Shown here: one piece after another, positions 7,931 through 64,000 of the stretch
Layout: the number at the start of each line of letters is the position of its first letter
How positions within the stretch are numbered: the first letter of the stretch is position 1
DNA from: an uncultured bacterium
Lineage (GTDB): Bacteria; Bacillota_I; Bacilli_A; RFN20; CAG-826
Direction: 5' to 3'
Length of the DNA: 64,000 nucleotides
Assembly: GCA_949299165.1 (NCBI GenBank)
Contig: CASFZJ010000001.1
Span: forward strand, 67,504-131,503
Program-made: the position numbers and the translations under genes
Notes under the pieces: generated by a model
Told to the model about the DNA's origin: nothing
What the model saw: only the letters and a program-made list of their open reading frames with translations
Database searches by the model: none

Positions 7931-8804
7931 TCCATTCCCTTTTCCAGTAACTGAACAATTAAAACCATGGTGCCGGCAAATCACTTTAATCTTTTTAGCG
8001 TTTTTATTTGTTTGCTATCCTTTTATGTATTTTATGGGCAAAAAAGCTCGAACAAATAATAAAATTCGTGATTATTTTACGATGACTATCGGATTAATTT
8101 TAATTTCAACCGAAATATATAAACAAATTTTATTCGCTTTTCACTATAATTTTGACACTTATAGATGGTTCCTTTTCCCATTCCAACTTTGTTCAATTCC
8201 AATGTATACTTCAGTAGTTATGCCTTTAATTAAAAATGAAAAAATAAGAAAGGCACTATTTGCTTTTATGGCATTTTATGGAATGCTTGGTGGTTTATCA
8301 GTTGCTATATATCAACAAAGTGTCTTAACACGGGAAGATTATAGTTTAGATTATCAATCAATTATTTGGCACTTTGCCTTAATTGCACTAGGAATTTATT
8401 CAGCAACCTACCTAAATATCGGTTCAAATGAATTTAAAAAAGAAGCTAAAATATATGAATATGGCACATTCACATTTGTAATTTTCTTAATTGCGGCTGA
8501 AATTATCAATTTACTCATTGTCTTAAATCATGGATATAACGAATATACATGGGGCGGAAACATGTTCTACATTTCAATGTTTATGTTTAACCTTGATATT
8601 CCTATTTTAAGCACGGTCACATCTACTTGTGGATGGTATGTTGGATTTATTGGATATTCGTTTGTACTAATGCTTGGTGGATTTGCTATTTTTAGTGCAT
8701 ATTATGGGATAAATCGATTATCGAAAAAGATAATAAAAACTAAAAAATATCAAAAATTTCAACAAAAAATAACAAATTTTAAAGAGAATTTAAGAAACCG
8801 TTAA
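7902..8804 (+). CDS. YwaF/TP0381-like integral membrane protein
   Basis: Hydrophobic; FPFQLCSIPMY, WHF and NMFYIS resemble YwaF-family motifs; two CGG codons (7974, 8331) probably read as Trp. Confidence 0.65.
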   Translation: MLIKTLTSYNPFPFPVTEQLKPWCRQITLIFLAFLFVCYPFMYFMGKKARTNNKIRDYFTMTIGLILISTEIYKQILFAFHYNFDTYRWFLFPFQLCSIPMYTSVVMPLIKNEKIRKALFAFMAFYGMLGGLSVAIYQQSVLTREDYSLDYQSIIWHFALIALGIYSATYLNIGSNEFKKEAKIYEYGTFTFVIFLIAAEIINLLIVLNHGYNEYTWGGNMFYISMFMFNLDIPILSTVTSTCGWYVGFIGYSFVLMLGGFAIFSAYYGINRLSKKIIKTKKYQKFQQKITNFKENLRNR

Positions 8805-9264
8805 TTTCATTTTCTCCAAGGTATAAATTTTCAAATCTTCCATCTTTAATTTCGTACAAAGATGGTGTTCCAAAATAATATGTTTCGTTTAATGAACTAG
8901 GTTTAGTTTGTTCCATTTCTCTAATCAATACATTGCGGTCATAATTTGCACTTTTAACTTTAAATTTATTTCTATTAGGCACACCACCATCACCAGAATT
9001 TAAATCGAAAAGATATATTTTTAATGTTTTTTCCCCGCTGTTTAATTTATCAAGATAATTAAATAAGTTTGTTTTAACATTTTCACAATGCGAACACTCA
9101 ACTTGATATAAATCAATAAAATAATGTTCTTCTTCTATTTGATAGAAATTATCGATGTAATCAAGAAAAAAATTACTGTATTCACTGTAGCTTCTAGTCT
9201 CATTTTGACCACAAGAAACAAGAGTTAAAAACAAAAAAGATATGAGAATTGCAGGCTTTTTCAT
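8779..9264 (-). CDS. lipoprotein with thioredoxin-like CxxC
   Basis: Signal peptide and lipobox LVSC; CSHC motif; GTPSLY cis-Pro-like motif. Confidence 0.65.
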   Translation of the reverse strand: MKKPAILISFLFLTLVSCGQNETRSYSEYSNFFLDYIDNFYQIEEEHYFIDLYQVECSHCENVKTNLFNYLDKLNSGEKTLKIYLFDLNSGDGGVPNRNKFKVKSANYDRNVLIREMEQTKPSSLNETYYFGTPSLYEIKDGRFENLYLGENEINGFLNSL

Positions 9265-10358
9265 TATTTTATAGGTTTTCTATAGAAACTTCCGTAAACT
9301 TGTTCCATTGGCATAACGTTAATAAAAACATGTGGATCGGCTTTTCTACAAATTTTAACAACTTTCTTAGCTTCACTTTTTCTAACTGACATATAAATAA
9401 CAAACATTGATTTTCCAGTATATCCACCCTTGGCATCAAGAATTGTACATCCATGTGGAATATTAGCTAAAACTACGTTAGATAAATTATAGTTTGACGT
9501 CATGATTTGAAGTTCAACTTTCTTATTTTGAATGTTAATTGTATCAACAACAACAGTCACAAGAACCATGTAGAATAAAGTAAATAAGAAAATAACTAAA
9601 GCTGTTGGCACAGCAACTTGTCCCATTTCATGTTGAGCGAAAACAGAATTAATTGGAATAGTACTTAAAATGCTAAATGTACTTACAATAATTAAATTAA
9701 ATAAAGCGGACCATTTGCCAATTTGAACACTCTTTCTTTCGCTTATGTAATAAGCAATTATGTCAGTTCCGCCTGCTGTTGATTCAATATGGTATGCAAG
9801 GGCACTAGCCATTCCAGTGCAAAGACCACCAAAAAGAACACGACTAACAATATCTTGTCCTAAAGAATATGTAACAAGGTTAATAAAATCGTTTGGATCA
9901 GAATTCGGCAAAACGATACCAAAAACAGAGGCAAGAGCGACATTAATTAATGAATAAAGTGCGAATCTTTTACCAACTTTAAAGAATGCAAAGATAAATA
10001 AAGGCACATTAATACCAAGATAAAGGCACCAATATGTGACATCAAGCAATGTATTATTTGTTAAATAAGTTCCACCACAAATTTTGATAATCGATAAGAC
10101 AACTTGACTAAGTCCACTAGCGCCACAGCTTGCTAAAGTTTTAATATTTAAACCTTCTACAACATTAAAAGCCTCTTCACTAATATTTGCGATTGCACCA
10201 TAATTAGGTTGAATAAAGGCTTTAAAACCGAAAGCAAAAATAAAACTTGATAAACAAGTAATCAACAAACAATAAATATTATCCAACACATCTCTTTGCG
10301 TTGGATGGTCAAACATATAATCGATAATTTTTTTCTTAAATTTCTTCAAATAATACAT
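9264..10358 (-). CDS. YitT family membrane protein (DUF161 + DUF2179)
   Basis: GASGLSQ, INVPLFIFAFFKVGKRF, STAGGTDIIA; C-terminal HGCTIL.AKGGYTG...DPHVFI. Confidence 0.88.
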   Translation of the reverse strand: MYYLKKFKKKIIDYMFDHPTQRDVLDNIYCLLITCLSSFIFAFGFKAFIQPNYGAIANISEEAFNVVEGLNIKTLASCGASGLSQVVLSIIKICGGTYLTNNTLLDVTYWCLYLGINVPLFIFAFFKVGKRFALYSLINVALASVFGIVLPNSDPNDFINLVTYSLGQDIVSRVLFGGLCTGMASALAYHIESTAGGTDIIAYYISERKSVQIGKWSALFNLIIVSTFSILSTIPINSVFAQHEMGQVAVPTALVIFLFTLFYMVLVTVVVDTINIQNKKVELQIMTSNYNLSNVVLANIPHGCTILDAKGGYTGKSMFVIYMSVRKSEAKKVVKICRKADPHVFINVMPMEQVYGSFYRKPIK

Positions 10359-10728
10359 ATGAATTATCTTAATAATTCATACTTTAAAAAACAAGAAAAT
10401 ATTTAGCTTTTTTATCTAAATTCAAAAATATCAAAAAGGTACTTTTTTACAAAAAAAACCTGCAAAAATTAAATATTTTCTGGAAATTTTAAAAATTTCC
10501 CCAACTTTTTTAAAATTCCCTATATTTTTTTTAAAAACCAGTACTTTTTTAAAATCATATTTTCCAAAAATTGTAACCTCAACAGAAAAAGTAATTAGTA
10601 AAAGAAATTAGTAAGGATTTCCGCGTTAATGAACAATAAACATTTTTTCTTAACAATAATTTTATTATTGTTTAGAATTTATTTTAGTGATATGCTTTTA
10701 GTTGCTTATTTTAGATGAGGTATTTTAA

Positions 10729-25719: not shown

Positions 25720-28290
25720 TTACAAATCATATTCAAAATGATATTTACCACCTTTAATATTATCAATTTTTTTATCATTAATAATAAGTGTTGATAATGT
25801 ATTTGCTGGTAAAATAATATCAATTAAACACTTTTCATTTTCCTTTTTCCAACTAACAGAAACTTTACCATAAACACTATCATAACTGCCTTTGGCAAAA
25901 GTTATATTTCCACCAATTATTGGTTTAATTAAGAAACTATTTTCTTTAACGACATTAATACCAAGCATTCCATTAAAAAGCCATTCAACCATTGCGCCTT
26001 TAGAATAATGATTTAGCGAGGCGACGCCAGTTTTAGCAAGTGGTCCTTCCCAGGATTCCCAGACGGATGTTGTATCGTTTTTAGCCATAAATAACCAGCC
26101 AGGATTTTCCTCATTTTCTAAAAGTTTATAAGCGTATTCTTTATCGATTTTTGTTAAGACTTCAAGAATAAATGGTGTCGAAAGAAAACCAGTTCCGATT
26201 CTCCAAGAAAAATTATCAAGTGCTTTGATAAGTCTATCTTCCACTTTTTTAGTTGTCTCTTCATCAAGTAAATCCATATATAAAGGTCTAACTAATTTAG
26301 CTTGTCTATCTGTATCCAATTTAAAACGATCGAGTTTAACTAACTCTTGATAAGCGCGCTTTGTTCCTAAAATATATTCTTCTAACCATTTAGCATCTTT
26401 TTCTTTGCCTAAAATTGAAGCGATTTCTCTAACTTTAGATAAAGTATAATTTGTATAGGCTGTAGATTCTTCTGGATGAGGAACAGCTACATCTTTCCAA
26501 GATTGATCATAAATTTCTTTTGGTTCAAGCCGTTCACCATAAGATTGTCCTTTATTTACTAAATACTTTTTGATTTTATGTGTCATTTTAATTTTTGGAG
26601 CTAACACACCAGTTTTTCCACATCTTGAAATCATAAATTTTGCGTAGCGCATAATGTTATCATATGAATCTTGAAGAATTCTCTTGTCGCCATATTTTAA
26701 ATAATGCCTATAAGGTATTAAAACTCCAGCACATGCCCAGCCAACAGATCCATTTAAAAAATTCATATAAAAATCTTCCCCAACAGTTGGTACTATTTGG
26801 TAGAATTTTCCATTTTTAGTTTGGGTATCTTTTAAATCATTGATGTATTTTCTTGCAAAAGAAGCATAATTAACTAAATATGATGCTGAATTGAAGAAAA
26901 TTTGCGCATCTCCTGTCCATCCTGCTCTCTCACGTGTTGGACAATCAGTAGGCACATCAACCGAATTGTCTTTTAAAGACCAAAGAGTGTTGTGATAAAA
27001 CTTATTAATCAATTCATTTGAACATTCAAAAGTTGAAGAGTCTTCAAAAGCGTTATAGACACTAATTGCTTCAATTTCAAGTTTGTCAGAAATATTTTCA
27101 ATATCGCTTTCAATTTCAACAAACTTAAATCCGCCATAATAAAATTTAGGTTTATAGTCGTTTAATCCTTCTTTACATTCATAAACTATCATTTGAAGAG
27201 GTGTAACTTGCCATTTTGCATAGAGTTGAAAATTCTTTTGCGAAATTTCATTATTTTCACCAATCATCTCAGCGAACTTTAATTTAATAAAATTCCCTTG
27301 TTTTGCATTGATTTTAAACGAAACATACCCTGTTATCATTTGTGGAAATTCGATGATTAACTTGCCACTTGGTGAAATAAATTTTCTTTTAGGCACAAAT
27401 TTTTCCATTTCTTTAACTTGAAAATTATTTGAACATTTTAAATTTTTAAGAGATTCATTTGTTAATATGGCTTTATCTTTATAAGTAGGTACAAGATTTG
27501 CCTTTACTCTTTCGCCATCTCTTAAATCATTAATTCCTATAGGTCCATCATTTGACCAAGAAAATGAATCATCAGTTAAAATTTTTGTCACTTTTCCATT
27601 TTCATCATAGATTTCAAGTTGAGCAAAAACTTTAGTTTCTTTTCCATAGACATTTCGGTGTCCCCAAGCACCATTACTTCCTCTATACCATCCATCCCCA
27701 AGCACTAATTCAAGTGAATTTTTACCTTCTTTAATTAAACTAGTGACATCATATGTTTGATATTGAATTCTATGATGATAATTAGTTGATCCTGGATTTA
27801 ATACTGAATCGCCAGCTTTTTTGCCATTAATTGATGCTTCATAAACTCCAAGTGCGGTTGCATAAAGTCTAGCTCTTTTGACTTTAAAATTTATTTCAAA
27901 ATCTTTTTTAAAATAGTCGGCTGGATATCTTCTTTTTTTACTTGCCTTATAATTTCCTTTTATAAAATGAGCTTCAAATTCTTTATTATCTAATAAGCCA
28001 AACTCAAAATAAGCATGTTCGCTTTCTTCGCCTTTTTCTCCATTTTCATCAATTAAAGTAACAAAATATTCAACCCTATCTCTACTTTTAAAAGGATAAT
28101 CAAATATGTAATTCATTGATGAAGATCTCATCTCATCAGTTTCAATAAGATCTCCATCGTTTACTTTAAAAGATACGATATAGGCGCTTTGATTTTTATC
28201 GCCTTCATCGTTCCACGTTATACGAGGATTTTTGATATCTATTCCAAGTGGATTAGTTAAAAATTCACATTTTAAATTAACTGCTTTCAT
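25720..28290 (-). CDS. alpha-L-rhamnosidase (GH78)
   Basis: NPLGID..PRITW, LGDGWYRG, TDCPTRERAGWTGD, TGFLST, WESW, SLNHYS; CGG at 26530-26532 lies at a Trp position. Confidence 0.94.
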   Translation of the reverse strand: MKAVNLKCEFLTNPLGIDIKNPRITWNDEGDKNQSAYIVSFKVNDGDLIETDEMRSSSMNYIFDYPFKSRDRVEYFVTLIDENGEKGEESEHAYFEFGLLDNKEFEAHFIKGNYKASKKRRYPADYFKKDFEINFKVKRARLYATALGVYEASINGKKAGDSVLNPGSTNYHHRIQYQTYDVTSLIKEGKNSLELVLGDGWYRGSNGAWGHRNVYGKETKVFAQLEIYDENGKVTKILTDDSFSWSNDGPIGINDLRDGERVKANLVPTYKDKAILTNESLKNLKCSNNFQVKEMEKFVPKRKFISPSGKLIIEFPQMITGYVSFKINAKQGNFIKLKFAEMIGENNEISQKNFQLYAKWQVTPLQMIVYECKEGLNDYKPKFYYGGFKFVEIESDIENISDKLEIEAISVYNAFEDSSTFECSNELINKFYHNTLWSLKDNSVDVPTDCPTRERAGWTGDAQIFFNSASYLVNYASFARKYINDLKDTQTKNGKFYQIVPTVGEDFYMNFLNGSVGWACAGVLIPYRHYLKYGDKRILQDSYDNIMRYAKFMISRCGKTGVLAPKIKMTHKIKKYLVNKGQSYGERLEPKEIYDQSWKDVAVPHPEESTAYTNYTLSKVREIASILGKEKDAKWLEEYILGTKRAYQELVKLDRFKLDTDRQAKLVRPLYMDLLDEETTKKVEDRLIKALDNFSWRIGTGFLSTPFILEVLTKIDKEYAYKLLENEENPGWLFMAKNDTTSVWESWEGPLAKTGVASLNHYSKGAMVEWLFNGMLGINVVKENSFLIKPIIGGNITFAKGSYDSVYGKVSVSWKKENEKCLIDIILPANTLSTLIINDKKIDNIKGGKYHFEYDL

Positions 28291-33981: not shown

Positions 33982-35337
33982 TTAATTTATTTTAAAAGAT
34001 AAATAATAAGGGATAGTTAATATATTTTGTGTCTCTCCTAAATTTGAAGAGGTTAGTTTAACTAATCTATCGACATTGTACTTTGGATTTGAAAGCACTT
34101 CCTTTGCTGATTTAGCATTTCCGTTTTTTGCTTTTACCTCTAATAAGGTAATAAACGAGTTAACTTTAGAAACAAAATCAATTTTTAATCCACTTCTTTT
34201 CGAAAAATAATAAAAATCCTTTTTGCTTTTTATTAAAGCATCAGCAACGAGACTTTCATAAATCATTCCTTTGCCAAAAGATAAATCATTTGTGAGTATT
34301 TTAAACTTAATATCACTATCAAGCATTCCAATCGTCAAACCAATATCTGTTAAATAAACTTTAAAATCATTTTCGATCTTAAATGCACTTAGTGGTTCCT
34401 CAAAAGTCGTTATATTGTGGCACAATTTAATTAAGCCATATTGTTCAAGCCAAGTTAGTGCGCTCTTATATGTATAATTTTTATTTTTGTTTCCAACCAT
34501 GCTGTAAGTAAACTTCTTATTTTCTTTAGAAAGTTGATTAGGAAGGGAAATAAATACATCTAAAATTCTTGCTTTTTCTAATTCATTACGGACAATTTTT
34601 CCATCTTTACTTAAATGTGTTTCAAAGTCATCTTTATAGTTTTGAATAATATTTTTCTGATAGTGATCAACTTCTGAAAATCTTTTGTTCTAACATAAGC
34701 TTCTACCACTTCTGGTAAGCCACCTACACATATATAAATTCTAATCCAGTTTAAAAATAGTTCATGTAAATAAGAAGGAATTTCTTTTTTTCATTAAAAC
34801 ATTCCTTTATAATTTCTATCAAATTTAAAGAAACATTATTGGCCCGTAAAAATTCTTCAAAATCCATCGGCATCATTGTTATTACTTCTTCAGAGCCAAC
34901 GCAATCCCTCTACTATTTTCGCTTGTATCATTATAACCACTTATTCCCAAAAAAGATCCAGTACAAATAACATCAAATCTTTCATCTCCATTAAAATATT
35001 TAAGTGAAGATCTTGCATTTAAACAATCTTGAATTTCGTCAAAAATTAAAATTGTTTTGTGAGGCACCATCTTCGAATTTTTAATTATCTTGTTTTCATC
35101 AGGAAGAGCTGTTATCATTGCTGAAATATAATCGATGTTAAAATTACCAGCAAATATTTTTGCTAAATCTTTATCTTTACGAAAATCCAAAAAGAATGCA
35201 TTTTCATATTTTTCTTTAGCAAATTCTTTTGCGGAAACTGTCTTACCGATTTGCCTTAGACCCTTAATAATCAATGGTTTTTTGTTTTCTCTTGCGTACC
35301 ATTTATTTAGATATTCGCTAATTTTTCTTTTAAACAT
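33982..35337 (-). pseudogene. AAA_14 ATPase + DUF4143 protein with three -1 frameshifts
   Basis: Walker A GLRQIGKT and Walker B FDEIQ; PMDFEEFL(W)A, VGGLPEVV, DIG, LEVK. A continuous ~450-codon frame needs +1 nt at about 34901, in the T run 34785-34791 and in the A run 34677-34680. Confidence 0.85.
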
Positions 35338-36043: not shown

Positions 36044-38617
36044 CTATTCATTAAATGAAAGTTCATTAATTCCCGGCACAAGTTCACAATGAAAATCTTT
36101 AAACATAAACTCAGCTTTTGTGTTTGGAGGTATTGATATTTTAAAATTGATTTTTTTATTTTCTCTTTCCCAAGACGCACTCACTCTTCCATATAAAGAA
36201 TCATAATATCCTTTTGCAAATTTAAAAGTTCCACCAATTACTGGTTCAATTTTAAAAGAGTTTTCAGCATTAACATTTATACCAAGTACAGCTTTAAAAA
36301 GGAACTCTACCATTGCGCCTTTTGAATAGTGATTTAAGGAAGATAAACCATAATTTTGTTGTACGCCTTCCCAACTTTCCCAAATTGATCCAGTCGAATT
36401 TTTTGCCATATAAAGCCAACCTGGTTTTTCTTCATTCTCAAGCAATTTATAAGCGTATTCTGGATCGATATCTTTTAAAACAAAAAGTATAAATGGGGTT
36501 GATAAAAATCCTGTTCCAATTCTCCAAGAAAAATCATTTAAGTCTACGATTAATTTATTTTGAGCAAATTTCTTTTGCTCTTCATCAAGTAAATTCATAT
36601 ATAAAGGGCGAACAAGTAAGGCTTGTCTTTTGGTATCAAGAGAAAATTCCTTTAAAGTTATTAGTTCTTGATATGCTTCTCTTGTTCCCTTTATATATTT
36701 ATCTATTTTTTGCGCTTCTTCTTCATGTCCTAAAACTCGTTCAATTTCCTGAAAACAAGTTAAAACGTAATTTGTATAAGCAGTTGAAACTTCTGGATGA
36801 GGAAAAATTACATCTTTCCAATCTTGAGGATAAATATCATTTGGCTCAGCCCATTCTCCATACGATTGATCTCTTCTAACTAAATATTTTTTATTTTTAT
36901 GAGATATTTTGATGTGTTTTGATATTGGTCCACCCCGTTTTCCAATTCTTTTAATCATAAAATTGATATATTTTTTCATTGGCCCATATATTGATTCAAG
37001 ATATTTTTTATCGCCATACAATTTATAAAATCTATATGGTATTAAGATTCCAGCATCAGCCCACCCAACTGAACCATTTAATGTATGCATGAAAAATGGC
37101 TCATTAACTGTTGGAACAATGTGAGAAAAACGACCATCTTTGAATTGTCGATCAATTAAGTCATTAATATGTTTTCTAATAAATGGTGCATAATCCATTA
37201 AATAAGCTGCACTATTAAAGAAAATTTGTGAATCCCCAGTCCAACCAGCTCTTTCGCGAGTAGGACAATCAGTTGGCACATCAACCGAATTTGATTTTAA
37301 GGAATTTATCGTATTTTTAAAGAAAATATTAACTAAATTATTTGAACATTCAAAATTAGAAATTAGCGATAAATCACTATAAATTACGATTTGTTTAAAA
37401 TCAGTCAATTCATAAGGCACATCACTTTCTATAAGAGCATATTTAAATCCACCATAATAAAATTTTGACTTATATTCATTAATTCCATCTTTAAAAATAT
37501 AGTTAATTTCTTGTTTTGGTGTATCACCATATTTTGTATGATCTTGAATATTTAGTAATGAAAATTCCCCATCATTATCGATATATTCACCCATCACAAT
37601 ACGGATTTTATCGCCTTTTTTACCTTTTAATTTAAAAGCAATATATCCACTTAAATTGTTTTCAAAAAGTAAAACATGTTTCTTTTTAGGTGTGATGATT
37701 TCTTTTATTGGATAATGTTCTTCTTTTTCTTTCACAAAATAGTTATTTGAAGCTTTCAAATTATATTTTTTGTGGATTTCTTTGGCTCTTCCTTTATAGG
37801 TAGGAACAAGATTAGCGTCAAAAAATTCACCATCTTTAATATCATTAAAAATAATAGGACCATCGTTCGACCACGAGAACTTATCATCACTTAAAACTTC
37901 AAAAAGAAGCTTATCACCGCTAAAAAATTCACATTGCAGGAAAGCTTTACTTACTTTTCCAAAAGTATTTGGTTTTCCACTCCCACCATTATTTCCACGA
38001 TACCACCCATCACCAAGTATAATTTTTATCTCGTTTCTACCTTCTTTTAATAGAGGTAAAATGTCGTATGTTTGATATTGAACCCTTTTACGATAATCAG
38101 TCGAACCTGGTGCCAAAACAAAATCACCGACTCTCTTATCGTTAATAGAAAGTTCATATAACCCACACGCACTTGCATAAGCTCTTGCTTTTGTAATTTT
38201 ATTTAAGTCTTCAATAGAAAATTCTTTTTTAAAATAATCGGCTGGGTATCTTGTTTTTCTTTTAACTTTATAATTGCCGCTTATCCATTTTGCATGAAAA
38301 TCAGTCTCGTTCAAAAGACCAATTTCAAACGAATTTTCTTCGCTAAAAACATGAGTGTCATCATTTATTATTGCTTCAATTTTATATTTAATTATGTCCC
38401 TACTTTTAAAGGGGTTCGTAAAAATATAATTCATCGAACTAGATTCAACAAGCTCACTAACATAATTATTTTTATTAATTGAATAATGAATTTTGAAAGC
38501 TTTTTGTAAAAGCTTTTCATCTCCTTCAGATTTATAATTCCAAGTAATTCTAGGACTTAAAATATCGATGCCGATTGGATTAGTTAAATACTCACATTTT
38601 ACATTTTCAATTTTCAT
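36044..38617 (-). CDS. alpha-L-rhamnosidase (GH78), second paralog
   Basis: Collinear with 25720..28290; TDCPTRERAGWTGD, GEWAEP, SLNHYSKG; start moved to the ATG at 38617 (MKIENVKCEYL). Confidence 0.94.
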   Translation of the reverse strand: MKIENVKCEYLTNPIGIDILSPRITWNYKSEGDEKLLQKAFKIHYSINKNNYVSELVESSSMNYIFTNPFKSRDIIKYKIEAIINDDTHVFSEENSFEIGLLNETDFHAKWISGNYKVKRKTRYPADYFKKEFSIEDLNKITKARAYASACGLYELSINDKRVGDFVLAPGSTDYRKRVQYQTYDILPLLKEGRNEIKIILGDGWYRGNNGGSGKPNTFGKVSKAFLQCEFFSGDKLLFEVLSDDKFSWSNDGPIIFNDIKDGEFFDANLVPTYKGRAKEIHKKYNLKASNNYFVKEKEEHYPIKEIITPKKKHVLLFENNLSGYIAFKLKGKKGDKIRIVMGEYIDNDGEFSLLNIQDHTKYGDTPKQEINYIFKDGINEYKSKFYYGGFKYALIESDVPYELTDFKQIVIYSDLSLISNFECSNNLVNIFFKNTINSLKSNSVDVPTDCPTRERAGWTGDSQIFFNSAAYLMDYAPFIRKHINDLIDRQFKDGRFSHIVPTVNEPFFMHTLNGSVGWADAGILIPYRFYKLYGDKKYLESIYGPMKKYINFMIKRIGKRGGPISKHIKISHKNKKYLVRRDQSYGEWAEPNDIYPQDWKDVIFPHPEVSTAYTNYVLTCFQEIERVLGHEEEAQKIDKYIKGTREAYQELITLKEFSLDTKRQALLVRPLYMNLLDEEQKKFAQNKLIVDLNDFSWRIGTGFLSTPFILFVLKDIDPEYAYKLLENEEKPGWLYMAKNSTGSIWESWEGVQQNYGLSSLNHYSKGAMVEFLFKAVLGINVNAENSFKIEPVIGGTFKFAKGYYDSLYGRVSASWERENKKINFKISIPPNTKAEFMFKDFHCELVPGINELSFNE

Positions 38618-40217: not shown

Positions 40218-41531
40218 TTATTTCTCGAATAAAATGCTATTTAATACAGACTCAAGATATTCCTGTCTTCCGCTTTGAACATTTATATCGTCATGTTTTA
40301 AAGCATATTCACTTAATTCTTCAAAATTAGTGGATTTTTGCGAGATTTTTTCTCCAATTCCGGTTTGATAACTTCTATATCTTTCTTCTTTAAATTCATC
40401 AATCCTGCCATCTTCAATCATTTTAACGGCTTTTCTTAAACCTAAAGCAAAAGCATCCATTCCTGCAATATAGGCAAGAAGAATATCTTCTAAAGTGTTA
40501 GATTGGCGCCTTGTTTTAGCATCAAAATTTAATCCGCCATTTGTAAATCCGCCTTCTTTTAAAACTTCATACATGCATAAAGTTGTATCGTAAACATTTG
40601 TTGGGAATTGATCGGTATCCCGTCCAAGAAGCATATCACCTTGGTTAGCATCAATACTGCCAAACACTCCATTGACTCTTGCTGTTCTTAATTCATGTTC
40701 AAATGTATGACCTGCAAGTGTTGCGTGATTTGCTTCGATATTTAATCTAAAATCATCCATTAAATTATAAGTTCTAAGGAAATTACAAGCGGTAGCAGCA
40801 TCAAAGTCATATTGATGTTTTGTTGGTTCTTTTGGTTTTGGTTCAATATAAAAATCGCCTTTATAACCTTTACTTCTTGCATAATCTCTTGCCATTTGCA
40901 TAAAATAACCAAGATTATCAAGTTCAACCTTCATATTTGTATTTAATAAGGTGTCATAACCTTCTCTTCCACCCCAAAATACATAGCCGGTTCCACCAAG
41001 TTTAATATTTGCATCTAAACAAGCTTTGACCTTAGCGGCACTTAAAGCAAAAACATCAGCGTTAGGTGAAGTTGCGGCACCAGCCATAAAAACTTTATCG
41101 CCAAAATTATTAGCTGTACACCAGAGAAGTTTCTTATTATGTTTCTTTTGTAAAACTGCTAAATAATCAACAATTTCTTTAAAATTGTCAAAGAATTCTT
41201 TTAAATTTTTGCCTTTTGGAGCAACATCAACATCATGGAAACAATAATAATCTATTGATAATTTATCCATTAATTCAAATGCGACATCCGCTCTTTTTTT
41301 ATAAAGTTTCATTGGTTCAGTTTCGCCCCAACTTTTATCTTCAGTTGGTCCACCAAACATATCAACTCCACAATAATCTAAAGTGTGCCAATAAGACATA
41401 GCAAACTTTAGATGTTCTCTCATCTTTTTACCTAAAATAACTTCATCAGGATTGTAATATTTAAAGGAAAATGGATCTTTTGAGTCTGGTCCTTTATAAA
41501 CGACTTTTTCAATTTCATTATACTTTTTCAT
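40218..41531 (-). CDS. xylA: xylose isomerase, class II
   Basis: [49 protein letters not shown](W)[13 protein letters not shown]. Confidence 0.97.
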
Positions 41532-41543: not shown

Positions 41544-43097
41544 TTATTTTATAAATTCATAAAGATAAATTGAGTTGCTTTTTGCAACAAAATTTATAAT
41601 TGTTTTACCAAAATCCCTGCAAAAGTCCACTTTTTCTTTTTTTAATGTAGAGTTTTCACGGATTTTCACGATTTCTTCATCACTTAATAATTTCTTTTCA
41701 CGAAGTTTCTTCCGTTCTTTCACAGGATTAACATGGTCATCATCAATACGATATAAATTAACTTCTTTATATTCTCCTTCGAGAGTTAATTTAATCTTTT
41801 CCTCGTTATTTTTATCAATATCAAAATCTTGATTAAAGACTAAAACTTGGTAACCATTATTCGTTTTATAAATATGGTATTCGAACTCTTTTTCTTCGTT
41901 TTTATCTAAAGTAATTTCATCATGTGATAAGTTATTTAAAATCTTGAACGCATAGAAAACTGGTTTAGGAATACCAACATTATTCACAATTCCAAATCCG
42001 CCAAAGAATGGTTTATTAATAATAAACGATTCTTCAAAGATATCACTTCCACACCAATAGGAAGCGCCTGCAATTGAATCATCCATTTCAAGAGCATATT
42101 TTAAAGCAAAAGTTGCTGCAACTTTATCGTCGTGATATGGTGAACAATAAACCGCCATTGTCGACCATTCAGTTATATATAAAGGATAATTTGGAATTTG
42201 AGCATGTGCTTCTTTATCCATTTTCTTAAATAAAGACTTAGGCCAATTTACATAATTTGATTTTTTATAGAAGAATTTTTGGTAAGTTTTACCAATATCC
42301 CATTTTTCTTTTTTAGCTTGATGTGCAATTTTCATGATATTTAATGAATCTTTAAATTCAAAAACATTTCCAAAAGCATCACCAACATAATGGTGAGTAG
42401 TAACAAAATCAGGTTTACAACCATTATTTTCACCAAAAGTTGTAAAATCTTTTAACCATTTACATTTACTAGTTGAAGGTCCACCAATTTCAAGTTTTGG
42501 ATCGACATCTTTTAAGGCACAATATGCTGTTTTATAAAGTTTAAAATAATCTTTTTGTTTTCCATTAAAGAAAATTCCTAAATCTGGCTCATTCCAAACT
42601 TCAAATTTCCGTGTTTCGATTTCTTCTTTACCATAAGTTTCAACTAAAAATTCACCAAAATCATGAATGAATTTATAGTATTTGTCCCAACTTTTTGGTA
42701 AAGAAATATTGTTTTTATATCTCAAACCATATTTTTTCTTTTTAGCTAATGCTTCTGGCATAAAAGAAAGTTCTACAAATGGTTTAAAACCACAAAATAA
42801 AACATTATCCAAAACTTTCTTTACTTGTAAGAAATTGTATTCATAAATTGATCTAGAAAATGGCATCATCTTAAAATATGAATAATCTGATAATCTTTGA
42901 ATGATGAGCATATCATCATCAAATAATCCATGGAATCTTAAATATCTAATCCCGGTTTCTTCATGAATGAGCTTAAGTTGCTCTACCATATCTTTTCTTA
43001 GCATGAACACAGCATGACAATTTCCAATACAAAATTGCCATTTGTCATTTCTCTTTTTAATAGGTTTACTTTCTAAATTATTTAATACTATTTCCAT
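41544..43097 (-). CDS. beta-xylosidase (GH39)
   Basis: YLRFHGLFDDD, KPFVELSFMP, acid/base WNEP, GGPST, nucleophile YITEWS. Confidence 0.93.
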   Translation of the reverse strand: MEIVLNNLESKPIKKRNDKWQFCIGNCHAVFMLRKDMVEQLKLIHEETGIRYLRFHGLFDDDMLIIQRLSDYSYFKMMPFSRSIYEYNFLQVKKVLDNVLFCGFKPFVELSFMPEALAKKKKYGLRYKNNISLPKSWDKYYKFIHDFGEFLVETYGKEEIETRKFEVWNEPDLGIFFNGKQKDYFKLYKTAYCALKDVDPKLEIGGPSTSKCKWLKDFTTFGENNGCKPDFVTTHHYVGDAFGNVFEFKDSLNIMKIAHQAKKEKWDIGKTYQKFFYKKSNYVNWPKSLFKKMDKEAHAQIPNYPLYITEWSTMAVYCSPYHDDKVAATFALKYALEMDDSIAGASYWCGSDIFEESFIINKPFFGGFGIVNNVGIPKPVFYAFKILNNLSHDEITLDKNEEKEFEYHIYKTNNGYQVLVFNQDFDIDKNNEEKIKLTLEGEYKEVNLYRIDDDHVNPVKERKKLREKKLLSDEEIVKIRENSTLKKEKVDFCRDFGKTIINFVAKSNSIYLYEFIK

Positions 43098-46311: not shown

Positions 46312-47613
46312 TTATTCCTCTAACTTCTTGCCACTTGTGGCAATAATATCTTTATAATAATAGGCACTATCTTTAAAATATCTTTCTTCATTTTTATAAT
46401 CAACATAGACTAATCCAAAGCGAGGTTCATATCCTTCAGCCCGTTCAAAATTATCCATAAATGACCAATATGAATAGCCCAATACTGGCACACCTTCATT
46501 AATTGCTCTTTCTAAATTAACTAGATATTCTTTAATATATCTAATTCTTTCTTCATCATGGACTTTACCTTCTTTTAACTCTTCTTTTAAAGGTAATCCA
46601 TTTTCAGTAATCATAAGCGGCATATGATATCTCTCGTAAACAAAACGAGTTAACCAATATAATCCTTTACCATTATTTTCCCATCCAAGCATATTAGTCC
46701 ATTCATAGGTTGGTTTTTCTTTAGAAGTATAATCAACAAAAGGGGCGTAGTTATTTAAACCAATAAAATCTAAAGGTTCATAACATTCTTCACAAGTTTT
46801 CTTTGAAACTCGATAAATTCCATAAACTTTTGCAGGCTTTTTAGCCAAAATTGGGTCTAAAAACCAAGTATTTGCCAGTATTCCACTTGGTGTTTCAAAA
46901 GTAATTTGTCTTGCTTTTTCAATGTCTTCTTTCGATTCGGTTTCAGGAACTTTTGGACTTGTTGCAAAACTTAAACCAACAAGAGGCTTTTCTTTTGCAT
47001 ATTTTCTAATTGCTCTTGTAACAGCGGCATTAGCATGGAAAAAGTTACGACTAATTTTAGAAATTAATAATGGGTTTTTAATAAATGGGGCATGAACTCC
47101 TTGAACATATCCATTAAATAAGAAACAAGATGGTTCGTTAAAAGTAATCCAATATTTAACTCTATCACTGAGTTTTTCTACTACAGCTTTAGCATAAATC
47201 TCAAAATATTTAACAACTTTTCTTGTTCTCCATCCGCCCATTTCATATAGCCAAAAAGGCATGTCCCAATGGTATAAAGTAACAATTGGCTCAATTCCAT
47301 TAGCGAGTAATTCATCGACTAATTTTGAATAAAACTCAAGTCCTCTTTCATTTATTTCATCATATAGAGGCATAATTCGCGACATATTGATTGAAAAACG
47401 GTACGACTTAACTCCTAACTCCTTTAAAAGAGCAACATCTTTTTTATAAAGATGGTAGTGATCACAAGCGATTTTTGCATTCTCATTATTTTTAATTTTA
47501 CCTTCAGGCAAACAATCCCGGATGCTTAAACATTTTCCATCTTCATCATATGCTCCTTCAATTTGGGTTGCCGAAGTTGAAACACCCCACAAAAAATCTT
47601 TTGGAAATGACAT
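46312..47613 (-). CDS. beta-glucosidase (GH1)
   Basis: FLWGVSTSATQIEG, DHYH, YRFS, TLYHWD, TFNEP, ITENG, DNFE(W)AEGY..RFG. Confidence 0.95.
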   Translation of the reverse strand: MSFPKDFLWGVSTSATQIEGAYDEDGKCLSIRDCLPEGKIKNNENAKIACDHYHLYKKDVALLKELGVKSYRFSINMSRIMPLYDEINERGLEFYSKLVDELLANGIEPIVTLYHWDMPFWLYEMGGWRTRKVVKYFEIYAKAVVEKLSDRVKYWITFNEPSCFLFNGYVQGVHAPFIKNPLLISKISRNFFHANAAVTRAIRKYAKEKPLVGLSFATSPKVPETESKEDIEKARQITFETPSGILANTWFLDPILAKKPAKVYGIYRVSKKTCEECYEPLDFIGLNNYAPFVDYTSKEKPTYEWTNMLGWENNGKGLYWLTRFVYERYHMPLMITENGLPLKEELKEGKVHDEERIRYIKEYLVNLERAINEGVPVLGYSYWSFMDNFERAEGYEPRFGLVYVDYKNEERYFKDSAYYYKDIIATSGKKLEE

Positions 47614-54383: not shown

Positions 54384-55043
54384 ATGGAATTACTTGAAAA
54401 AATTGAAAACAATTTTAAAACAAAATATAACATTAATAATGAAAATGACATGTACGCCTTAACTCATTCTAGCGTTACACTTTCATTGATGATTGCAACT
54501 TATGCACATAAGGGGCAATATCGTAGAAATGGCGAACCATATATTTTACATCCAATTAGGATGATGGAACTTTATAAAGATTTAATTGGAATCAATGAAA
54601 ATCCAGAAAATATTGATATTGATATGATGCATAAACTAAGTTTACCTTATGAAGGAATTATGGAACTTTGTTTATTACATGATGTTATCGAGGATACATC
54701 AATTACTATTTCTGATATTGAGTCGATTTTCCAAGAAAAAAAATTAGGAATTTATTTCAATTTATACATTAAAAACGAACTTATTTTATTAACACACAAA
54801 AAAGGTGAGCCATACGAAGAATATTTAAAAAGAGTTGTAATTAGCAAATCAGCTTCATTAGTGAAGATCTTAGACATGTACAATAATTCTAATTATTTAA
54901 CAAGTGGCGAATTAGAAAATAATTTATTAGATAAAATTCAAAACTACCAAAAGTACATTTTAATACTTGTTCACGTTCACAAATTTAATAAAACATTTTT
55001 GAAATATAATGAGTTTAGAAAAGAACATGGACGGATGGATTGA
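54384..55043 (+). CDS. HD-domain small alarmone hydrolase-like protein (RelA/SpoT HD, Mesh1-like)
   Basis: AHKGQYRRNGEPYILHP, LLHDVIEDT, LLTH, KILDMYNN (cf. K.aDR.hN); RBS GGAGG. Confidence 0.8.
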   Translation: MELLEKIENNFKTKYNINNENDMYALTHSSVTLSLMIATYAHKGQYRRNGEPYILHPIRMMELYKDLIGINENPENIDIDMMHKLSLPYEGIMELCLLHDVIEDTSITISDIESIFQEKKLGIYFNLYIKNELILLTHKKGEPYEEYLKRVVISKSASLVKILDMYNNSNYLTSGELENNLLDKIQNYQKYILILVHVHKFNKTFLKYNEFRKEHGRMD

Positions 55044-58358: not shown

Positions 58359-58429
58359 AAAAAAAGTTTACTCACAATAAACTCATCTCGCAACAACATG
58401 TTTATATGAAATTTGAATAAAATTTAAGT

Positions 58430-58943: not shown

Positions 58944-59159
58944 TCATAAATCATACTCTACAAGTGGGTTTTCTTTAAACATCGGAAGAATTTTATCTAA
59001 AACCGAATCCATACATTCACAGCAAAGTATGACATCGATTTTTTCTAAATCATGCTTAGAGCCAAATCCAAAATAATGTTTAAAATGAAAATTTTCTTGT
59101 TTATCAAAAAATTCAAGATTTTTTCCACACATTGAACATTTATTTACATCTTTTTTCAT
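58944..59159 (-). CDS. small Zn-ribbon-like protein
   Basis: CSMCGK...LCCECMD, two CxxC pairs in 71 aa. Confidence 0.6.
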   Translation of the reverse strand: MKKDVNKCSMCGKNLEFFDKQENFHFKHYFGFGSKHDLEKIDVILCCECMDSVLDKILPMFKENPLVEYDL

Positions 59160-59350
59160 AAACTATCATCGATCTTATATGTTTTTCCGCGCAAGTACGA
59201 TTATCATTAAATTTGCAACGTATCATAAACAAAGCTATAAATATTAGATATTTTTAACTCCACAACCGCAAGTTCAGAATAGGTTGTCTTGGATATCACC
59301 AAACGTAATGCTATTAATAAAGTAGTCACATACGATAAATATTTAGGCAA

Positions 59351-59806
59351 TCAATGGATGTATACATCCATAAAATAATCAAAATTATAATCAAATGACT
59401 CTTTATCTTCTTTTACTTCTTTGTAGTTATTTATTCCTCTAGTAAAACTTTCTCTTATTTCTTTAAGTATTGATTCGACTACTTTTTTATATCTTCTGAT
59501 TTCAATAGTATCTTCGACCGGATCTATCTCAAAATCACTAACTATTTCTTCTTCTAAAAAATTTTCCATCCAAAATATTAAATCAATATATTTAGAGGAG
59601 ATCATTTTATTTTTTTGAAGATAGAAATCATTAAAAATTAATCTCACTCTTCTGATAGCATGCTTAAAAACTTTATCTAAATTCTCATAAGCTATATCCG
59701 GAGTCGTAGAATAATCATATATTTCAGCAATAATTACCATTAATTCATAACTAAAAAACTTTGTTAATCGTTCAACTTCTTTTTCATAAACACAATTTTC
59801 TTCCAT
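59351..59806 (-). CDS. hypothetical acidic protein
   Basis: 151-aa ORF with RBS GAGG; its 5' part has a decayed copy at 58430-58555. Confidence 0.65.
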   Translation of the reverse strand: MEENCVYEKEVERLTKFFSYELMVIIAEIYDYSTTPDIAYENLDKVFKHAIRRVRLIFNDFYLQKNKMISSKYIDLIFWMENFLEEEIVSDFEIDPVEDTIEIRRYKKVVESILKEIRESFTRGINNYKEVKEDKESFDYNFDYFMDVYIH

Positions 59807-59946
59807 AAACTGTACCTCGCGTATTAAATTCCTATAAGTAACTTTGTTATTCTAAACGATTGAAATTTAATGAATTTAAACATCTTTAAAGTAATCAAAT
59901 AAAACTTCTTCTTTAAGCTAGTAATTCGAATTAAACAAGTGAAAAT

Positions 59947-60282
59947 TTAGTAATACCAGTTAAGACACATATCTAATCGCTTGATAGTCTTATCGTTCAT
60001 CGATTTTCTTCTTGAATATTGAATATTTGGAATATAAATATCAAGTTCTTTATCGTATTTTTCATTAACTAGAAGCATTTTTCTTCTTTGCTTTTTGATT
60101 TGATAATGTTTAATTAATCGTTTTTGTTTGGGCGGAAGGGAATTAAACCTTTTTATAAATTTATCGTTCCAACTGATCATATAACCAGATCCGAAACGTG
60201 AACATACATCATATTTTTTCTTCATTTTTCTTCTCCCAAAACACTTTCTAGTATGCCTGTTTCTTTTTTTATATGTTTTCAT
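59947..60282 (-). CDS. small highly basic hypothetical protein
   Basis: 111 aa, K/R-rich; its 3' half has a decayed copy at 58680-58845. Confidence 0.55.
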   Translation of the reverse strand: MKTYKKRNRHTRKCFGRRKMKKKYDVCSRFGSGYMISWNDKFIKRFNSLPPKQKRLIKHYQIKKQRRKMLLVNEKYDKELDIYIPNIQYSRRKSMNDKTIKRLDMCLNWYY

Positions 60283-60305
60283 AAGTATTAAACATCTTTT
60301 AAAAA

Positions 60306-60644
60306 CTAAAGAATATTATATCCATTACATGTGTAATATTTATTTTCTAAAGAATTAGTATCCATGTATCTGCCATTATCGAATATCACACCATTAACCG
60401 GATACTCCATGAAGTTAAGACTGTCTGAAGGCAAATACTTCTCCCTGCTTCTTATTTTTTTACGATCGTTTCTTTTTAAAAAACGTTTCATGTACATGCC
60501 GCCTATAGAATACCTTACAATCCTCTCCTTAAGTTCATCATATCTATAACCACTTAGATAAATCGATCTTGGGTCGCATCTTTTCATTTTTCGATTTATT
60601 ATTCTTTTACCAATCATTTTTCTATAATATCTATCTCGCTTCAT
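60306..60644 (-). CDS. small highly basic hypothetical protein
   Basis: 112 aa, K/R/Y-rich, co-oriented with the neighbouring ORF. Confidence 0.55.
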   Translation of the reverse strand: MKRDRYYRKMIGKRIINRKMKRCDPRSIYLSGYRYDELKERIVRYSIGGMYMKRFLKRNDRKKIRSREKYLPSDSLNFMEYPVNGVIFDNGRYMDTNSLENKYYTCNGYNIL

Positions 60645-60886
60645 AAAAATATAGTATTAAAACCGAACAAGAACTTTACTAGCTAATACTTAAAAATTAA
60701 ATTTTTGTGTTTTAAAAGTTTAAAAGCTTTTTAATAAAGTTAATTTATTTGCAAAAAATATCCAGTTTAACAATATTCTTTGCAATCTTATATGCGTTTT
60801 GGACGCCTTTTCTCTATACAATTTAATAAAAACCAGTTCTATCTAAATATTCTCACTACTTTTGTTTTTATAATTAATTATTTAAT

Positions 60887-60920
60887 TTTAACAAGCCCCG
60901 GCTAAGCGAGGCTTGTTAAA
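60887..60920. terminator. hairpin overlapping the protease stop codon
   Basis: TTTAACAAGCC-N12-GGCTTGTTAAA, with an A/T-rich flank. Confidence 0.6.
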
Positions 60921-62236
60921 TTTTCTATTGTTTTGTTTTCTTGTTTTAAAACGGTCTTATTTTCACTCTTAGCTAAACTTATTTTAGGATCAGAATAATA
61001 ATTCGCAACGAACGCTTTGATTTCTTTAGCGGTCATATATCCTTTTTCATAAATAGCCTCAGCTAATTTATAGATTAAATCTTTTTTACTCTTTAAATAT
61101 TTATAAACTTTTTTATCTAGTCTTTTTAAAATTCTTTCTTCTTTTTTCTCATTTTTATGAAGTTTAATATAGGAAACAGTTCGATAATGAAAGTGATCTT
61201 CAGGAAGAATATACTCTAGACCAAAATACCCCATTCTATTAACGATAGTGTAGACTAGACTTCTTGCGTTTTCTAAATCACTTGCACAACCCCCACTAGC
61301 TTCTTTAAAGAATATCTTTTCAGCTTGTCTGCCTGCTAAATAAATTTCTGCTCTATTTAAATAATCACTGTATTTTCCAGGAAAATTCGTAGTTTTAGAG
61401 ATAATATATCCCTTGCCGCCATTGATTTTGACTCCGCCCAATTTATTTTTATCAGCGTATTTCAGATTCAACACAATATGCCCTGCTTCATGAATCGCAA
61501 TATTAAATAGAGATTTTTCTTTTGCTTTTATCGACCCATTTTCGTATTTATATAAAGTTTCGATAATATCGTCGCTTGTAATATCAAAAGTTCCTTTTGT
61601 TAAAATTGTTTCATTAATCATTGTTTTTATAGTGACAAATGATTCGCCATCAAATGCATTAATTAATTCATCATCATCGATTAACTCTTCATTAAGTCCA
61701 TATTTCTTAATTTGGTCTTGAATAATTTTAGTAATTTCATTAGGCGTTGGACTAGAAAAATTAATTATCGAAGATAATCTTCCTCTTCTTTTAAGTGGGG
61801 AAGGAATATCTGATAAATAATTACAAACAGTAATTACTAAAACATTTTTACTTACTTCTTCAATCCCGTCTAAATTTTCTTGCAAACTTCTAATTACACT
61901 TTTATTGTCATCGATTAACAAATCCAACTCGTCAATTAAAATTACGGCCTTCTTATCTAAACTAGCTTGATGGAAAATATTGTTAAGTTCTCCAATAACA
62001 TAAGTCGATTTGCGATTATAAACATAGCAAGGTATATCTTTTAGATACGTTTTCAAACATCTCATGACAAGCGACTTACCATTTCCAGGAGAGCCGTAAA
62101 GGATAACGCCTCTAGGGATCTCAATCCCTTTTTTCATATGTTCTTCATTATTTTTAAACCAATCAATAATGTTAATAAGCGCTTCGATTTGATTATCACA
62201 ACCGACAACTTCATTAAAAACTTCATTTCTTTCCAT
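60902..62236 (-). CDS. soluble FtsH-like AAA+ ATPase / M41 zinc metalloprotease without TM segments
   Basis: Starts directly at FNEVVGCD; Walker A GSPGNGKS, Walker B IDELD, SRH-like LKRRGRL, HEAGH, LAGRQAE, GCASDL. Confidence 0.85.
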   Translation of the reverse strand: MERNEVFNEVVGCDNQIEALINIIDWFKNNEEHMKKGIEIPRGVILYGSPGNGKSLVMRCLKTYLKDIPCYVYNRKSTYVIGELNNIFHQASLDKKAVILIDELDLLIDDNKSVIRSLQENLDGIEEVSKNVLVITVCNYLSDIPSPLKRRGRLSSIINFSSPTPNEITKIIQDQIKKYGLNEELIDDDELINAFDGESFVTIKTMINETILTKGTFDITSDDIIETLYKYENGSIKAKEKSLFNIAIHEAGHIVLNLKYADKNKLGGVKINGGKGYIISKTTNFPGKYSDYLNRAEIYLAGRQAEKIFFKEASGGCASDLENARSLVYTIVNRMGYFGLEYILPEDHFHYRTVSYIKLHKNEKKEERILKRLDKKVYKYLKSKKDLIYKLAEAIYEKGYMTAKEIKAFVANYYSDPKISLAKSENKTVLKQENKTIENLTSLA

Positions 62237-62266
62237 ATTTCTAATTTTTCCTTTCTATTTTTACAT

Positions 62267-62572
62267 TCACTTAATTTTTCCTTCTATAAAGAGCTTATGA
62301 TAAAAAAATATTTTGCCTGACAGTGGAAAACCAATATTATATCTTTTTTGTATCTTAACAATGCTTAAATTTTCCAATTTCTTTGCTTTAATATCTTCAA
62401 TAATTTTCATCGCAATTTTATTTTTCTCATTTTCATATTTAATAAATTCAATGCTTTTTAATCCTTCACTTATTTTTCTTTTAATAATGCTTTCTATACT
62501 TTCTCCACTAATTAAAAAGTATTTGTTAAGCATCATGTAATCCGTATCATTTATTTCAAATATTAATTTCAT
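62267..62572 (-). CDS. small putative DNA-binding protein
   Basis: N-terminus resembles a ribbon-helix-helix (MKLIFEI..D...L); C-terminus LSIVKIQKRYNIGFPLSGKI resembles an FtsK-gamma winged helix; 30 bp upstream of the protease. Confidence 0.5.
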   Translation of the reverse strand: MKLIFEINDTDYMMLNKYFLISGESIESIIKRKISEGLKSIEFIKYENEKNKIAMKIIEDIKAKKLENLSIVKIQKRYNIGFPLSGKIFFYHKLFIEGKIK

Positions 62573-62978
62573 TTTTATAGTAAAATCGACAAAAACTGTG
62601 CAAAACCCAAATTAAATTTAATTATAATCAATTACCAAAGTAATTTTTGTCTTCAAATTTAAATTCAAGTCAATTTGTTTTTCCTCCTCGCTTAATAGTT
62701 TAATAGCCGAGCCTTACGATTATTAAATTGCTTTTAAATTGTTCACATAAAAGAACAAAATAAAAAAGTTGATACTTTAATCAGTGTTTAAAATGAAATT
62801 TTATAAAGATTTTGAATACATTTTTTTGTTCTTTTCATTCTGCTAAGTGAAAGAAAATTACTATTTTTTACAACTGAAAAAATAAGGAAAATTTTTCCTT
62901 AAACATAATAAAAAATTATTCTAGTAGCAGATTTATTATTAATTATTTTGTTCTTTTTATTGATAAAAATAACTTCAT

Positions 62979-64000
62979 TTATAAGTAATTTTCGTATTTT
63001 GTTGATAGTTCTTTAAAATGATGAGCTAATCTTCTATTAACAAAGTCATCATAAACTGTAATTATTTGTGGAAATATTGGATTTGACAAAACCCGATTTG
63101 AAAAACTGTCTACATTAACTGAAATATTAGCAATGACATTTGCGTCTTCATCAATTATCTTTGATTCAATATATTTTTCAGTCATTTTTTCAGAAAGCTC
63201 AGAATTTAAAGAAACTAACTTTTTCTCATTTTCGCTTTTATCAACTTTAAATTTGTCACAAACTTCAAATGTTAGTTTTTCGGAAAAATAATCTCTAAAT
63301 GATGTTTCGATCATTCTTAAATATAATCCGTTAAAAGAAAAAGAGATTTTTCTTGTGTTTTTATTTAGTGGCATTTTAGCTTCTTTAATATAAGTTTCAA
63401 GCGACTTGCCATTAACATTATTTTCTATAAATAATTTATTTAAATCTCTATTTTTGACTAAATCTTCTGCAAAACGCCACTTTTTTTGTCCAATTATATG
63501 TATCGATCTAACATCTTCTAAAATAATTTCACCATCTGCAATCGCTATTAATAAAGCATATAATTTCCCACTATATTCTTTAATTGTATAAACTCGATAC
63601 CATTTCACTACATCTTTTAAAACGTAGTCTTTTTTCTCTTCATCATATACATAATTTAGTCTTTTCAGTTGAACTATTTTTTCTTTTTTAATTGCGTTCA
63701 TTAATATAGATAAAGTACTTGAAGTATATGTTGAATATTTATCTTTAGGCGACATTACTAGTTCTAAGGTTTTTTCAAACTCAATTTTTTCATTTTTTGA
63801 AGATAAAAGATTTAGGATTCTGTTTTTCAAATCTTTTGATACTTCTTCTTTAATGAATCTGTTGTTTTCAATAGAAAAAATAATGTTAAAAATATCGCCT
63901 TTTGAAAGATTGAATCTATTTTCTATATAATATTTCCCTTTTTCAGTACAAGAAACTTTAAAAGGAAAATTTTCTGAAAATCTATTCGAAAGTTCTTCTA
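62979..64000 (-). CDS. WYL-domain (HTH-WYL-WCX) transcriptional regulator, 5'-truncated by the window
   Basis: Frame is open from the window edge through 63830; ILMNAIKKEKIVQL...YSGKLYAL...IIL WYL-like region; C-terminal FSN(W)VL typical of WCX domains. Confidence 0.7.
   Translation of the reverse strand, partial: EELSNRFSENFPFKVSCTEKGKYYIENRFNLSKGDIFNIIFSIENNRFIKEEVSKDLKNRILNLLSSKNEKIEFEKTLELVMSPKDKYSTYTSSTLSILMNAIKKEKIVQLKRLNYVYDEEKKDYVLKDVVKWYRVYTIKEYSGKLYALLIAIADGEIILEDVRSIHIIGQKKWRFAEDLVKNRDLNKLFIENNVNGKSLETYIKEAKMPLNKNTRKISFSFNGLYLRMIETSFRDYFSEKLTFEVCDKFKVDKSENEKKLVSLNSELSEKMTEKYIESKIIDEDANVIANISVNVDSFSNRVLSNPIFPQIITVYDDFVNRRLAHHFKELSTKYENYL

Follow-up and report, generated by a model that had tools for sequence, protein, structure and literature searches.

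Codon CGG is very probably read as tryptophan in a low-GC, uncultivated lineage of gut Bacilli

Reassignment of the codon CGG from arginine (Arg) to tryptophan (Trp) has been found in an uncultivated RFN20 clade of Bacilli, in Anaerococcus, and in Absconditabacteria, the last of which also reassign CGA (Shulgina and Eddy 2021, PMC8629427). In the source table of that study the Bacilli clade appears as the GTDB genus UBA4855, with four species inferred to read CGG as Trp, a guanine-plus-cytosine (GC) content of 0.27 to 0.30, and 0.9 to 2.5 CGG per 10,000 aligned codons; the transfer RNAs (tRNAs) tRNA(ACG), tRNA(CCG), and tRNA(CCA) are present and tRNA(UCG) is absent (PMC8629427). Entries of that table for this group include GCA_900540395.1, GCA_900545015.1, GCA_002399785.1, and GCA_900540365.1, a species marked "?" (GCA_002438785.1), and an Arg outgroup (GCA_002451465.1). 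The reassigned genus is called Onthovivens in a 2026 paper, whose supplementary table gives its family as CAG-826, and the UBA4855/Onthovivens case is also listed in PMC13092985. Here we analyze a 64,000-nucleotide stretch of contig CASFZJ010000001.1 from an uncultured bacterium (herein the window; GC 28.55%), for which a preliminary description, made from the letters alone, had proposed that CGG encodes Trp. Comparison with orthologous loci of at least five related lineages supports this proposal: apart from one variable site, where hydrophobic or small residues are also seen, TGG is the only codon for which CGG is exchanged. We hold with high confidence that CGG has been reassigned from Arg to Trp in this low-GC, uncultivated gut lineage of Bacilli, with TGG staying the main Trp codon.

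Codon use was counted in the 52 non-nested open reading frames (ORFs) of at least 100 amino acids (translation table 11), which together comprise 19,353 codons. CGG occurs 11 times in these ORFs, or 5.7 times per 10,000 codons, and TGG 162 times; the dominant Arg codon is AGA (399), followed by CGT (86), CGA (45), AGG (33), and CGC (30). Two Trp codons would accordingly be in use, as had been proposed, with TGG making up ∼94% of the Trp codons of the window and CGG ∼6 to 6.5% (0 to 11% in relatives). All 11 of these codons lie in intact genes; a twelfth lies in a frameshifted pseudogene, and each of the 12 was found where the preliminary description had placed it (on the minus strand, its coordinate is the lowest base of the codon). 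The plausible small genes of the window contain no additional in-frame CGG. When the same ORFs are read in the other two frames, 46 and 106 CGG triplets are counted, against 11 in frame; in-frame CGG is strongly avoided yet still present. The relatives considered below have 0 to 7.5 CGG per 10,000 codons and a GC content of 0.27 to 0.29.

Two syntenic loci, L002 (CASGAD010000011.1) and L003 (CASERQ010000005.1), were obtained from a scan of species-representative genomes and belong to metagenome-assembled genomes of uncultured bacteria; their proteins are 71 to 89% identical to those of the window and 96 to 98% identical to each other. Further syntenic loci of 20 kb were reached through a homolog search with the TMEM164-family protein of the window. 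Of these, L016 has 93 to 99% protein identity to the window; L017, L019, and L020 have ∼77%, and L022 and L024 have ∼55%. Contigs of other public assemblies (L001, L004, and L005) were used to recheck the CGG codons of the window, and the same CGG codons recur in them; public contigs encoding proteins of the window are either short or extend it by only ∼360 bases.

The evidence that carries the assignment is the identity of the codons that CGG is exchanged for in orthologous DNA. Pooled over six relatives, the partners of the window CGG codons are TGG in nine cases, CGG in three, a Leu, Pro, or Thr codon in three, and an Arg or Lys codon in none; the Leu/Pro/Thr partners all belong to site 7974, which is variable. 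For the remaining five Arg codons, compared with the same six relatives, the partner is TGG in 0 of 858 cases, Arg in 615 of 858, and Arg or Lys in ∼86% (Fisher p = 2.9e-19 for TGG pairing of CGG versus the other five). When the codons of nine loci are aligned over 11,505 columns, 15 columns contain CGG in some locus; another lineage has TGG in 15 of these 15, and an Arg codon is found in 0 of the 15. Exchanges run in both directions: CGG of the window is TGG in both L002 and L003 at six codons (highest base 36937, 40622, 41714, 42611, 46443, and 47520), a relative has CGG in place of TGG of the window at 52360, 36853, and 46701, and TGG and CGG are also swapped between L002 and L003. CGG never stands opposite another Arg codon, whereas each comparison (L002, L003, and L016) contains 131 to 149 Arg-Arg pairs (131 to 134 with L002 and L003), and the earlier observation that recognizably conserved Arg positions are free of CGG is thereby borne out. 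Judged by these exchanges, CGG and TGG evolve as interchangeable synonyms under selection.

Examined one by one, ten of the 12 sites carry usable information, and each of these ten indicates Trp, where the preliminary description had counted about eight CGG codons on conserved Trp positions; one further site is weak (34844), one is silent (55032), and none is Arg. Eight of the ten have TGG in orthologous DNA, one has W in protein homologs, and one has TGG in the organism's own paralog. Nine CGG codons lie within a Trp-rich sugar-utilization cluster, and several of these can be placed on solved structures. In the xylose isomerase gene (40218-41531), codon 304 (40620..40622, minus strand; LLG[W]DTDQFP, with the residue encoded by CGG in brackets here and below) is TGG in L002 and L003 and W in the XylA structures PDB 1a0e, 1a0d, and 1a0c, and the independent assembly L001 also has CGG there. 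The gene for a glycoside hydrolase family 39 (GH39) β-xylosidase (41544-43097) contains two CGG codons on the minus strand, both of which are TGG in L002 and L003: codon 163 (42609..42611; T[W]KFEVWNEP) is W in the GH39 structures PDB 2bs9, 1w91, and 6yyh, and codon 462 (41712..41714) is the same CGG in L001. Two more are found on the minus strand in the GH1 β-glucosidase gene (46312-47613), codon 32 (47518..47520; SI[W]D) and codon 391 (46441..46443; MDNFE[W]AEGY); each is TGG in L002 and L003 and W in the GH1 structures PDB 6z1h and 8in1.

The two GH78 genes of the cluster have one CGG each, also on the minus strand. Codon 576 of the second rhamnosidase gene (36044-38662), at 36935..36937, is TGG in the orthologs of L002 and L003 (IKRIGK[W]GGPISK). 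Codon 587 of the other, an α-L-rhamnosidase gene (25720-28290), lies at 26530..26532 in the motif GE[W]LEP; an in-frame fragment of this GH78 protein gave no match to solved structures, and the site rests on the alignment of paralog and orthologs, in which the column has TGG in the window paralog (36851-36853) and CGG in L002 and L003.

On the plus strand, the TMEM164-family membrane protein gene (7902-8804) contains two CGG codons. Codon 25 (7974..7976) corresponds to TGG in L016, the closest relative (93% amino acid identity), and is otherwise variable, with Leu, Ser, Pro, or Thr in more distant relatives; protein homologs have L or W there, and never R. Codon 144 (8331..8333) is TGG in L016 and L022 and CGG in L017, L019, L020, and L024, and so flips between the two codons across five lineages. 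Of 120 database clusters of homologs (P0001-P0120), 79 have R, 18 have W, and 12 have H in column 144; where R is given, it is probably a table 11 translation of CGG, which is the codon seen in the DNA of the last four of these loci. This gene and the membrane-protein gene upstream (6911-7930, plus strand) overlap by 29 bases, an arrangement kept in L016, L017, L019, and L020; the corresponding genes of L022 and L024 overlap by 23 bases.

The site that rests on protein homologs is codon 371 (63093..63095, minus strand) of a 408-amino-acid orphan protein (62979 to ∼64205, with its start past the end of the window). It is W in 12 of 13 homologs, including two of 30 to 31% identity, and R only in a near-identical cluster; L004 and L005 share this CGG. 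The remaining two sites add little. The pseudogene (33982-35337) was an AAA_14/DUF4143 ATPase gene; at least three frameshifts separate its AAA_14 part from its DUF4143 part, both Pfam families being matched on the pieces. Its CGG, at 34844..34846 on the minus strand, belongs to a fragment of 41 codons (DFEEFL[W]A); three distant homologs have W, I, or Q at this position and none has R, which is weak evidence. CGG 55032..55034 (plus strand) is the third codon from the end of a 219-amino-acid protein (54384-55043) and is uninformative; the C-terminal tail is unconserved over 150 representatives of a full HMMER search, the closest of which has M there.

The change appears to be confined to one codon. 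Pooled over the relatives, CGA has Arg or Lys partners in 45 of 57 cases and never Trp, and AGG has Arg or Lys in 46 of 53; for CGA, CGT, CGC, AGA, and AGG alike, most partners encode Arg or Lys and none encodes Trp, in keeping with the earlier statement that conserved Arg residues are written with these five codons. TGA closes eight or nine ORFs at points where the orthologs also end, once with TAA, and the ORFs are intact under table 11. As CGA and AGG are still Arg and TGA is still a stop, the change is limited to CGG.

Several points weigh against decoding of CGG as Trp. Comparison of DNA reports what selection treats as equal, not what the ribosome inserts, and two of the 12 CGG sites (34844 and 55032) carry little or no information. 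ARAGORN detected no tRNA gene in the 64-kb window and no CCG-anticodon tRNA in the related loci scanned, which have only tRNA-His and tRNA-Thr. A metagenome scan with a pattern modeled on the tRNA-Trp of CAG-826, with CCG as its anticodon, returned nothing, and a looser pattern returned one tRNA(CCG), but not of this lineage. The decoding mechanism considered below is taken by analogy from the literature on a clade that is likely, but not certain, to include or adjoin this lineage; the relatives' accessions GCA_902496355.1, GCA_964327785.1, and GCA_963557285.1 are absent from the 2021 source table, as are GCA_037338875.1, CASGAD01, and CASERQ01.

The single match to the looser pattern (L032, FLNV01000035.1; 7491-7564, minus strand; A1:U72, G73) lies on an Absconditabacteria-like contig of 28% GC that uses TGA as a sense codon, with 12 to 34 in-frame TGA per long ORF, and fits the known Absconditabacteria code. 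The looser pattern is thus able to find such tRNAs, and the match is uninformative on the present lineage. A pattern scan of viral contigs gave only tRNA arrays that ARAGORN annotates as Arg(CCG) and that were taken to be phage-borne.

The same observations bear on three other explanations. Decoding of CGG might be ambiguous or inefficient, so that a mixture of Trp and Arg is inserted or a near-unassigned codon is tolerated through its rarity. CGG is indeed very rare here (11 of ∼19,000 codons), ambiguous translation can be dismissed only by experiment, as Shulgina and Eddy stress (2021, PMC8629427), and the tRNA(CCG) of some reassigned genomes has a 4-bp anticodon stem (2026 Nucleic Acids Research paper), with which misreading would be possible. 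Yet CGG occupies positions of XylA, GH1, and GH39 that are Trp in solved structures, no relative has Arg or Lys at any CGG site, and the repeated CGG/TGG flips at site 8331 would be costly if much of the product received Arg; we regard such ambiguity as very improbable.

Under the standard code, by contrast, CGG would mark genuine replacements by Arg in genes that are decaying or relaxed, or else TGG codons miscalled in sequencing or assembly. A true pseudogene does contain one of the 12 sites, and T-to-C changes at a single base are frequent both as errors and as polymorphisms. The other 11 genes, however, are full-length and 71 to 99% identical to their orthologs, and CGG pairs with Arg or Lys in 0 of 12 cases, compared with ∼86% for the partners of the other Arg codons. 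Neither sequencing error nor simple gene decay is tenable, since other assemblies have the same CGG and a number of distinct lineages have CGG where the alignment column is Trp; we give this explanation almost no weight. The standard code could also be kept if editing of messenger RNA (mRNA) converted the initial C of CGG to U, giving UGG. Such editing predicts the same pattern at the DNA level as reassignment, and DNA alone cannot tell the two apart; it would nevertheless have to act on every in-frame CGG, the sites share no sequence context, and it is superfluous given the dedicated tRNA(CCG) of Trp identity in the closely matching published clade. We know of no such C-to-U mRNA editing system in bacteria and consider its operation here extremely unlikely.

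Reassignment of CGG to Trp thus remains the reading that we prefer, and the published UBA4855/Onthovivens clade suggests how it could have come about. AT mutation pressure would have made CGG very rare; with loss of tRNA-Arg(UCG), the codons CGU, CGC, and CGA would be read by tRNA-Arg(ICG), and CGG would be left to a single dedicated tRNA. The anticodon of that tRNA, CCG, would be one base away from the Trp anticodon CCA, and the tRNA, having Trp identity features (G73 and no A20), would presumably be charged by tryptophanyl-tRNA synthetase. First-position transitions (T to C and C to T) could then toggle Trp sites between TGG and CGG, with AT bias holding CGG rare.

Sense-codon reassignments are rare in bacteria, and each solid case helps to test how codes change; the route under test here leads from low GC to a rare codon and to its capture by a single dedicated tRNA. 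The main value of the result is practical, namely correct translation of these genomes and awareness of Arg at Trp sites in public protein sets. If CGG is Trp, standard annotation writes Arg at Trp positions, and the ORF track supplied with the window is wrong at the CGG sites, as the preliminary description had anticipated; annotation with table 11 puts Arg at ∼6% of the Trp sites in this organism and its relatives. In public protein clusters, R stands at the Trp column in 79 of 120 for the TMEM164-family protein (column 144) and in 8 of 14 for the 408-amino-acid protein (column 202; P0245-P0258). We read most of these entries as stored table 11 mistranslations of CGG, as the DNA confirms for L017, L019, L020, and L024. 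Expression of the glycoside hydrolases in Escherichia coli without recoding of CGG to TGG would insert Arg, and for enzymes with CGG at a Trp common to all solved homologs the E. coli product would probably be impaired.

The left third of the window contains housekeeping genes (malQ, a P-type ATPase gene, serine dehydratase, whiA, coaD, def, RNase J, maf, NAD kinase, and an Spx-like gene). Its middle is the large sugar-utilization cluster referred to above, with genes for glycoside hydrolases of families GH3 (three), GH78 (two), GH2, GH1, GH39, and GH43, two MFS_2 transporters, xylA with an adjoining FGGY sugar kinase gene, rhamnose catabolism genes, and AraC-type regulators. Near malQ, L017, L019, L020, L022, and L024 have a SIR2_2-domain gene (∼2500-3900) between malQ and an ArsR-type regulator; this SIR2_2-domain gene is absent from the window and from L016. 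At the left edge of the shared block, L016 has a TnpB/Cas12f-like gene (1-456).

Between the AAA_14/DUF4143 pseudogene and the GH78 gene lies a noncoding stretch of 700 bp with tandem repeats and no convincing ORF. Five copies with a period of 32 nt, 65 to 85% alike, occupy 35374-35554, and two copies of 33 nt follow at 35583-35648; Rfam gave no family match anywhere in the window, these repeats included. Beside the pseudogene, a remnant of ∼140 bases (35800-35940, plus strand) is ∼78% identical to 54880-55010 (plus strand), the 3′ part of the gene for the 219-amino-acid protein, and this similarity suggests an old duplication or rearrangement. The right end of the window (53900-64000) looks like a variable island, possibly related to defense. 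Its genes encode a helix-turn-helix protein, a protein with PLD, ResIII helicase, and DUF3427 domains (55109-57967), a NUDIX protein, a soluble FtsH-like protein with AAA and M41 domains (60902-62236), and the 408-amino-acid orphan; in a relative, L033, two AAA-M41 genes and a Macro-domain gene surround the same orphan.

Compared with the described cases, the code of the window most resembles that of UBA4855/Onthovivens. In both, CGG alone has changed its meaning, and Trp is the new one; TGG is retained, and Arg is still encoded by CGA and AGG. Both are uncultured gut genomes of low GC with very rare CGG and Bacilli-type gene content. The Spx, YlbF, WhiA, and RNase J genes of the window are of a kind that we take to be Bacilli-type. 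The GC content and CGG rarity of the window and its relatives fit the published Firmicute-type range (GC 0.26 to 0.38; CGG below ∼6 per 10,000, with relatives reaching 7.5); for CGG the comparison is approximate, the published figure referring to Pfam-aligned columns and ours to all codons. AGA, the dominant Arg codon of that code type, is dominant in the window as well. The share of CGG among Trp codons is slightly larger here than the ∼2 to 4% computed from the published UBA4855 table, although the counts are small. We consider it likely that the window lies in or next to UBA4855/Onthovivens. The caveat of the preliminary description, that the genome might belong to the known uncultured Bacilli clade, was apt, the GC and codon-use pattern being the same; the code change seen here is of a kind already published rather than new, and the clade is very probably the same or a neighboring one. 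There is a smaller chance, which we rate as rather doubtful, that the lineage lies outside the published clade, in which case the reassignment would have an independent origin or the reassigned group would be much larger, and more widespread in gut metagenomes, than has been reported. At least five to six species-level lineages are represented among the relatives, and one RNase J cluster occurs on 147 contigs; were the lineage outside the clade, the ∼10% share of CGG among Trp codons in some lineages would point to a rebounding codon.

The other known systems are more distant. Anaerococcus shares the reassignment of CGG to Trp in a low-GC Firmicute in which CGG is rare, but it belongs to a different class (Clostridia), and its authors found CGG too rare there for supporting conserved positions, of which there are many here. 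Absconditabacteria (SR1) read CGG as Trp through a tRNA(CCG) with G73, as proposed for the present lineage; in that unrelated group CGA is also Trp and UGA is Gly, whereas in the window CGA still encodes Arg and TGA still terminates ORFs. Another RFN20 group uses an AGG-to-Met code, unlike the window, in which AGG is Arg. The same low-GC route has been proposed for Peptacetobacter, where CGG became Gln, and for Mycoplasma capricolum, where CGG is unassigned (both cited in PMC8629427); the window differs from the former in that CGG is Trp rather than Gln and from the latter in that the codon is clearly used.

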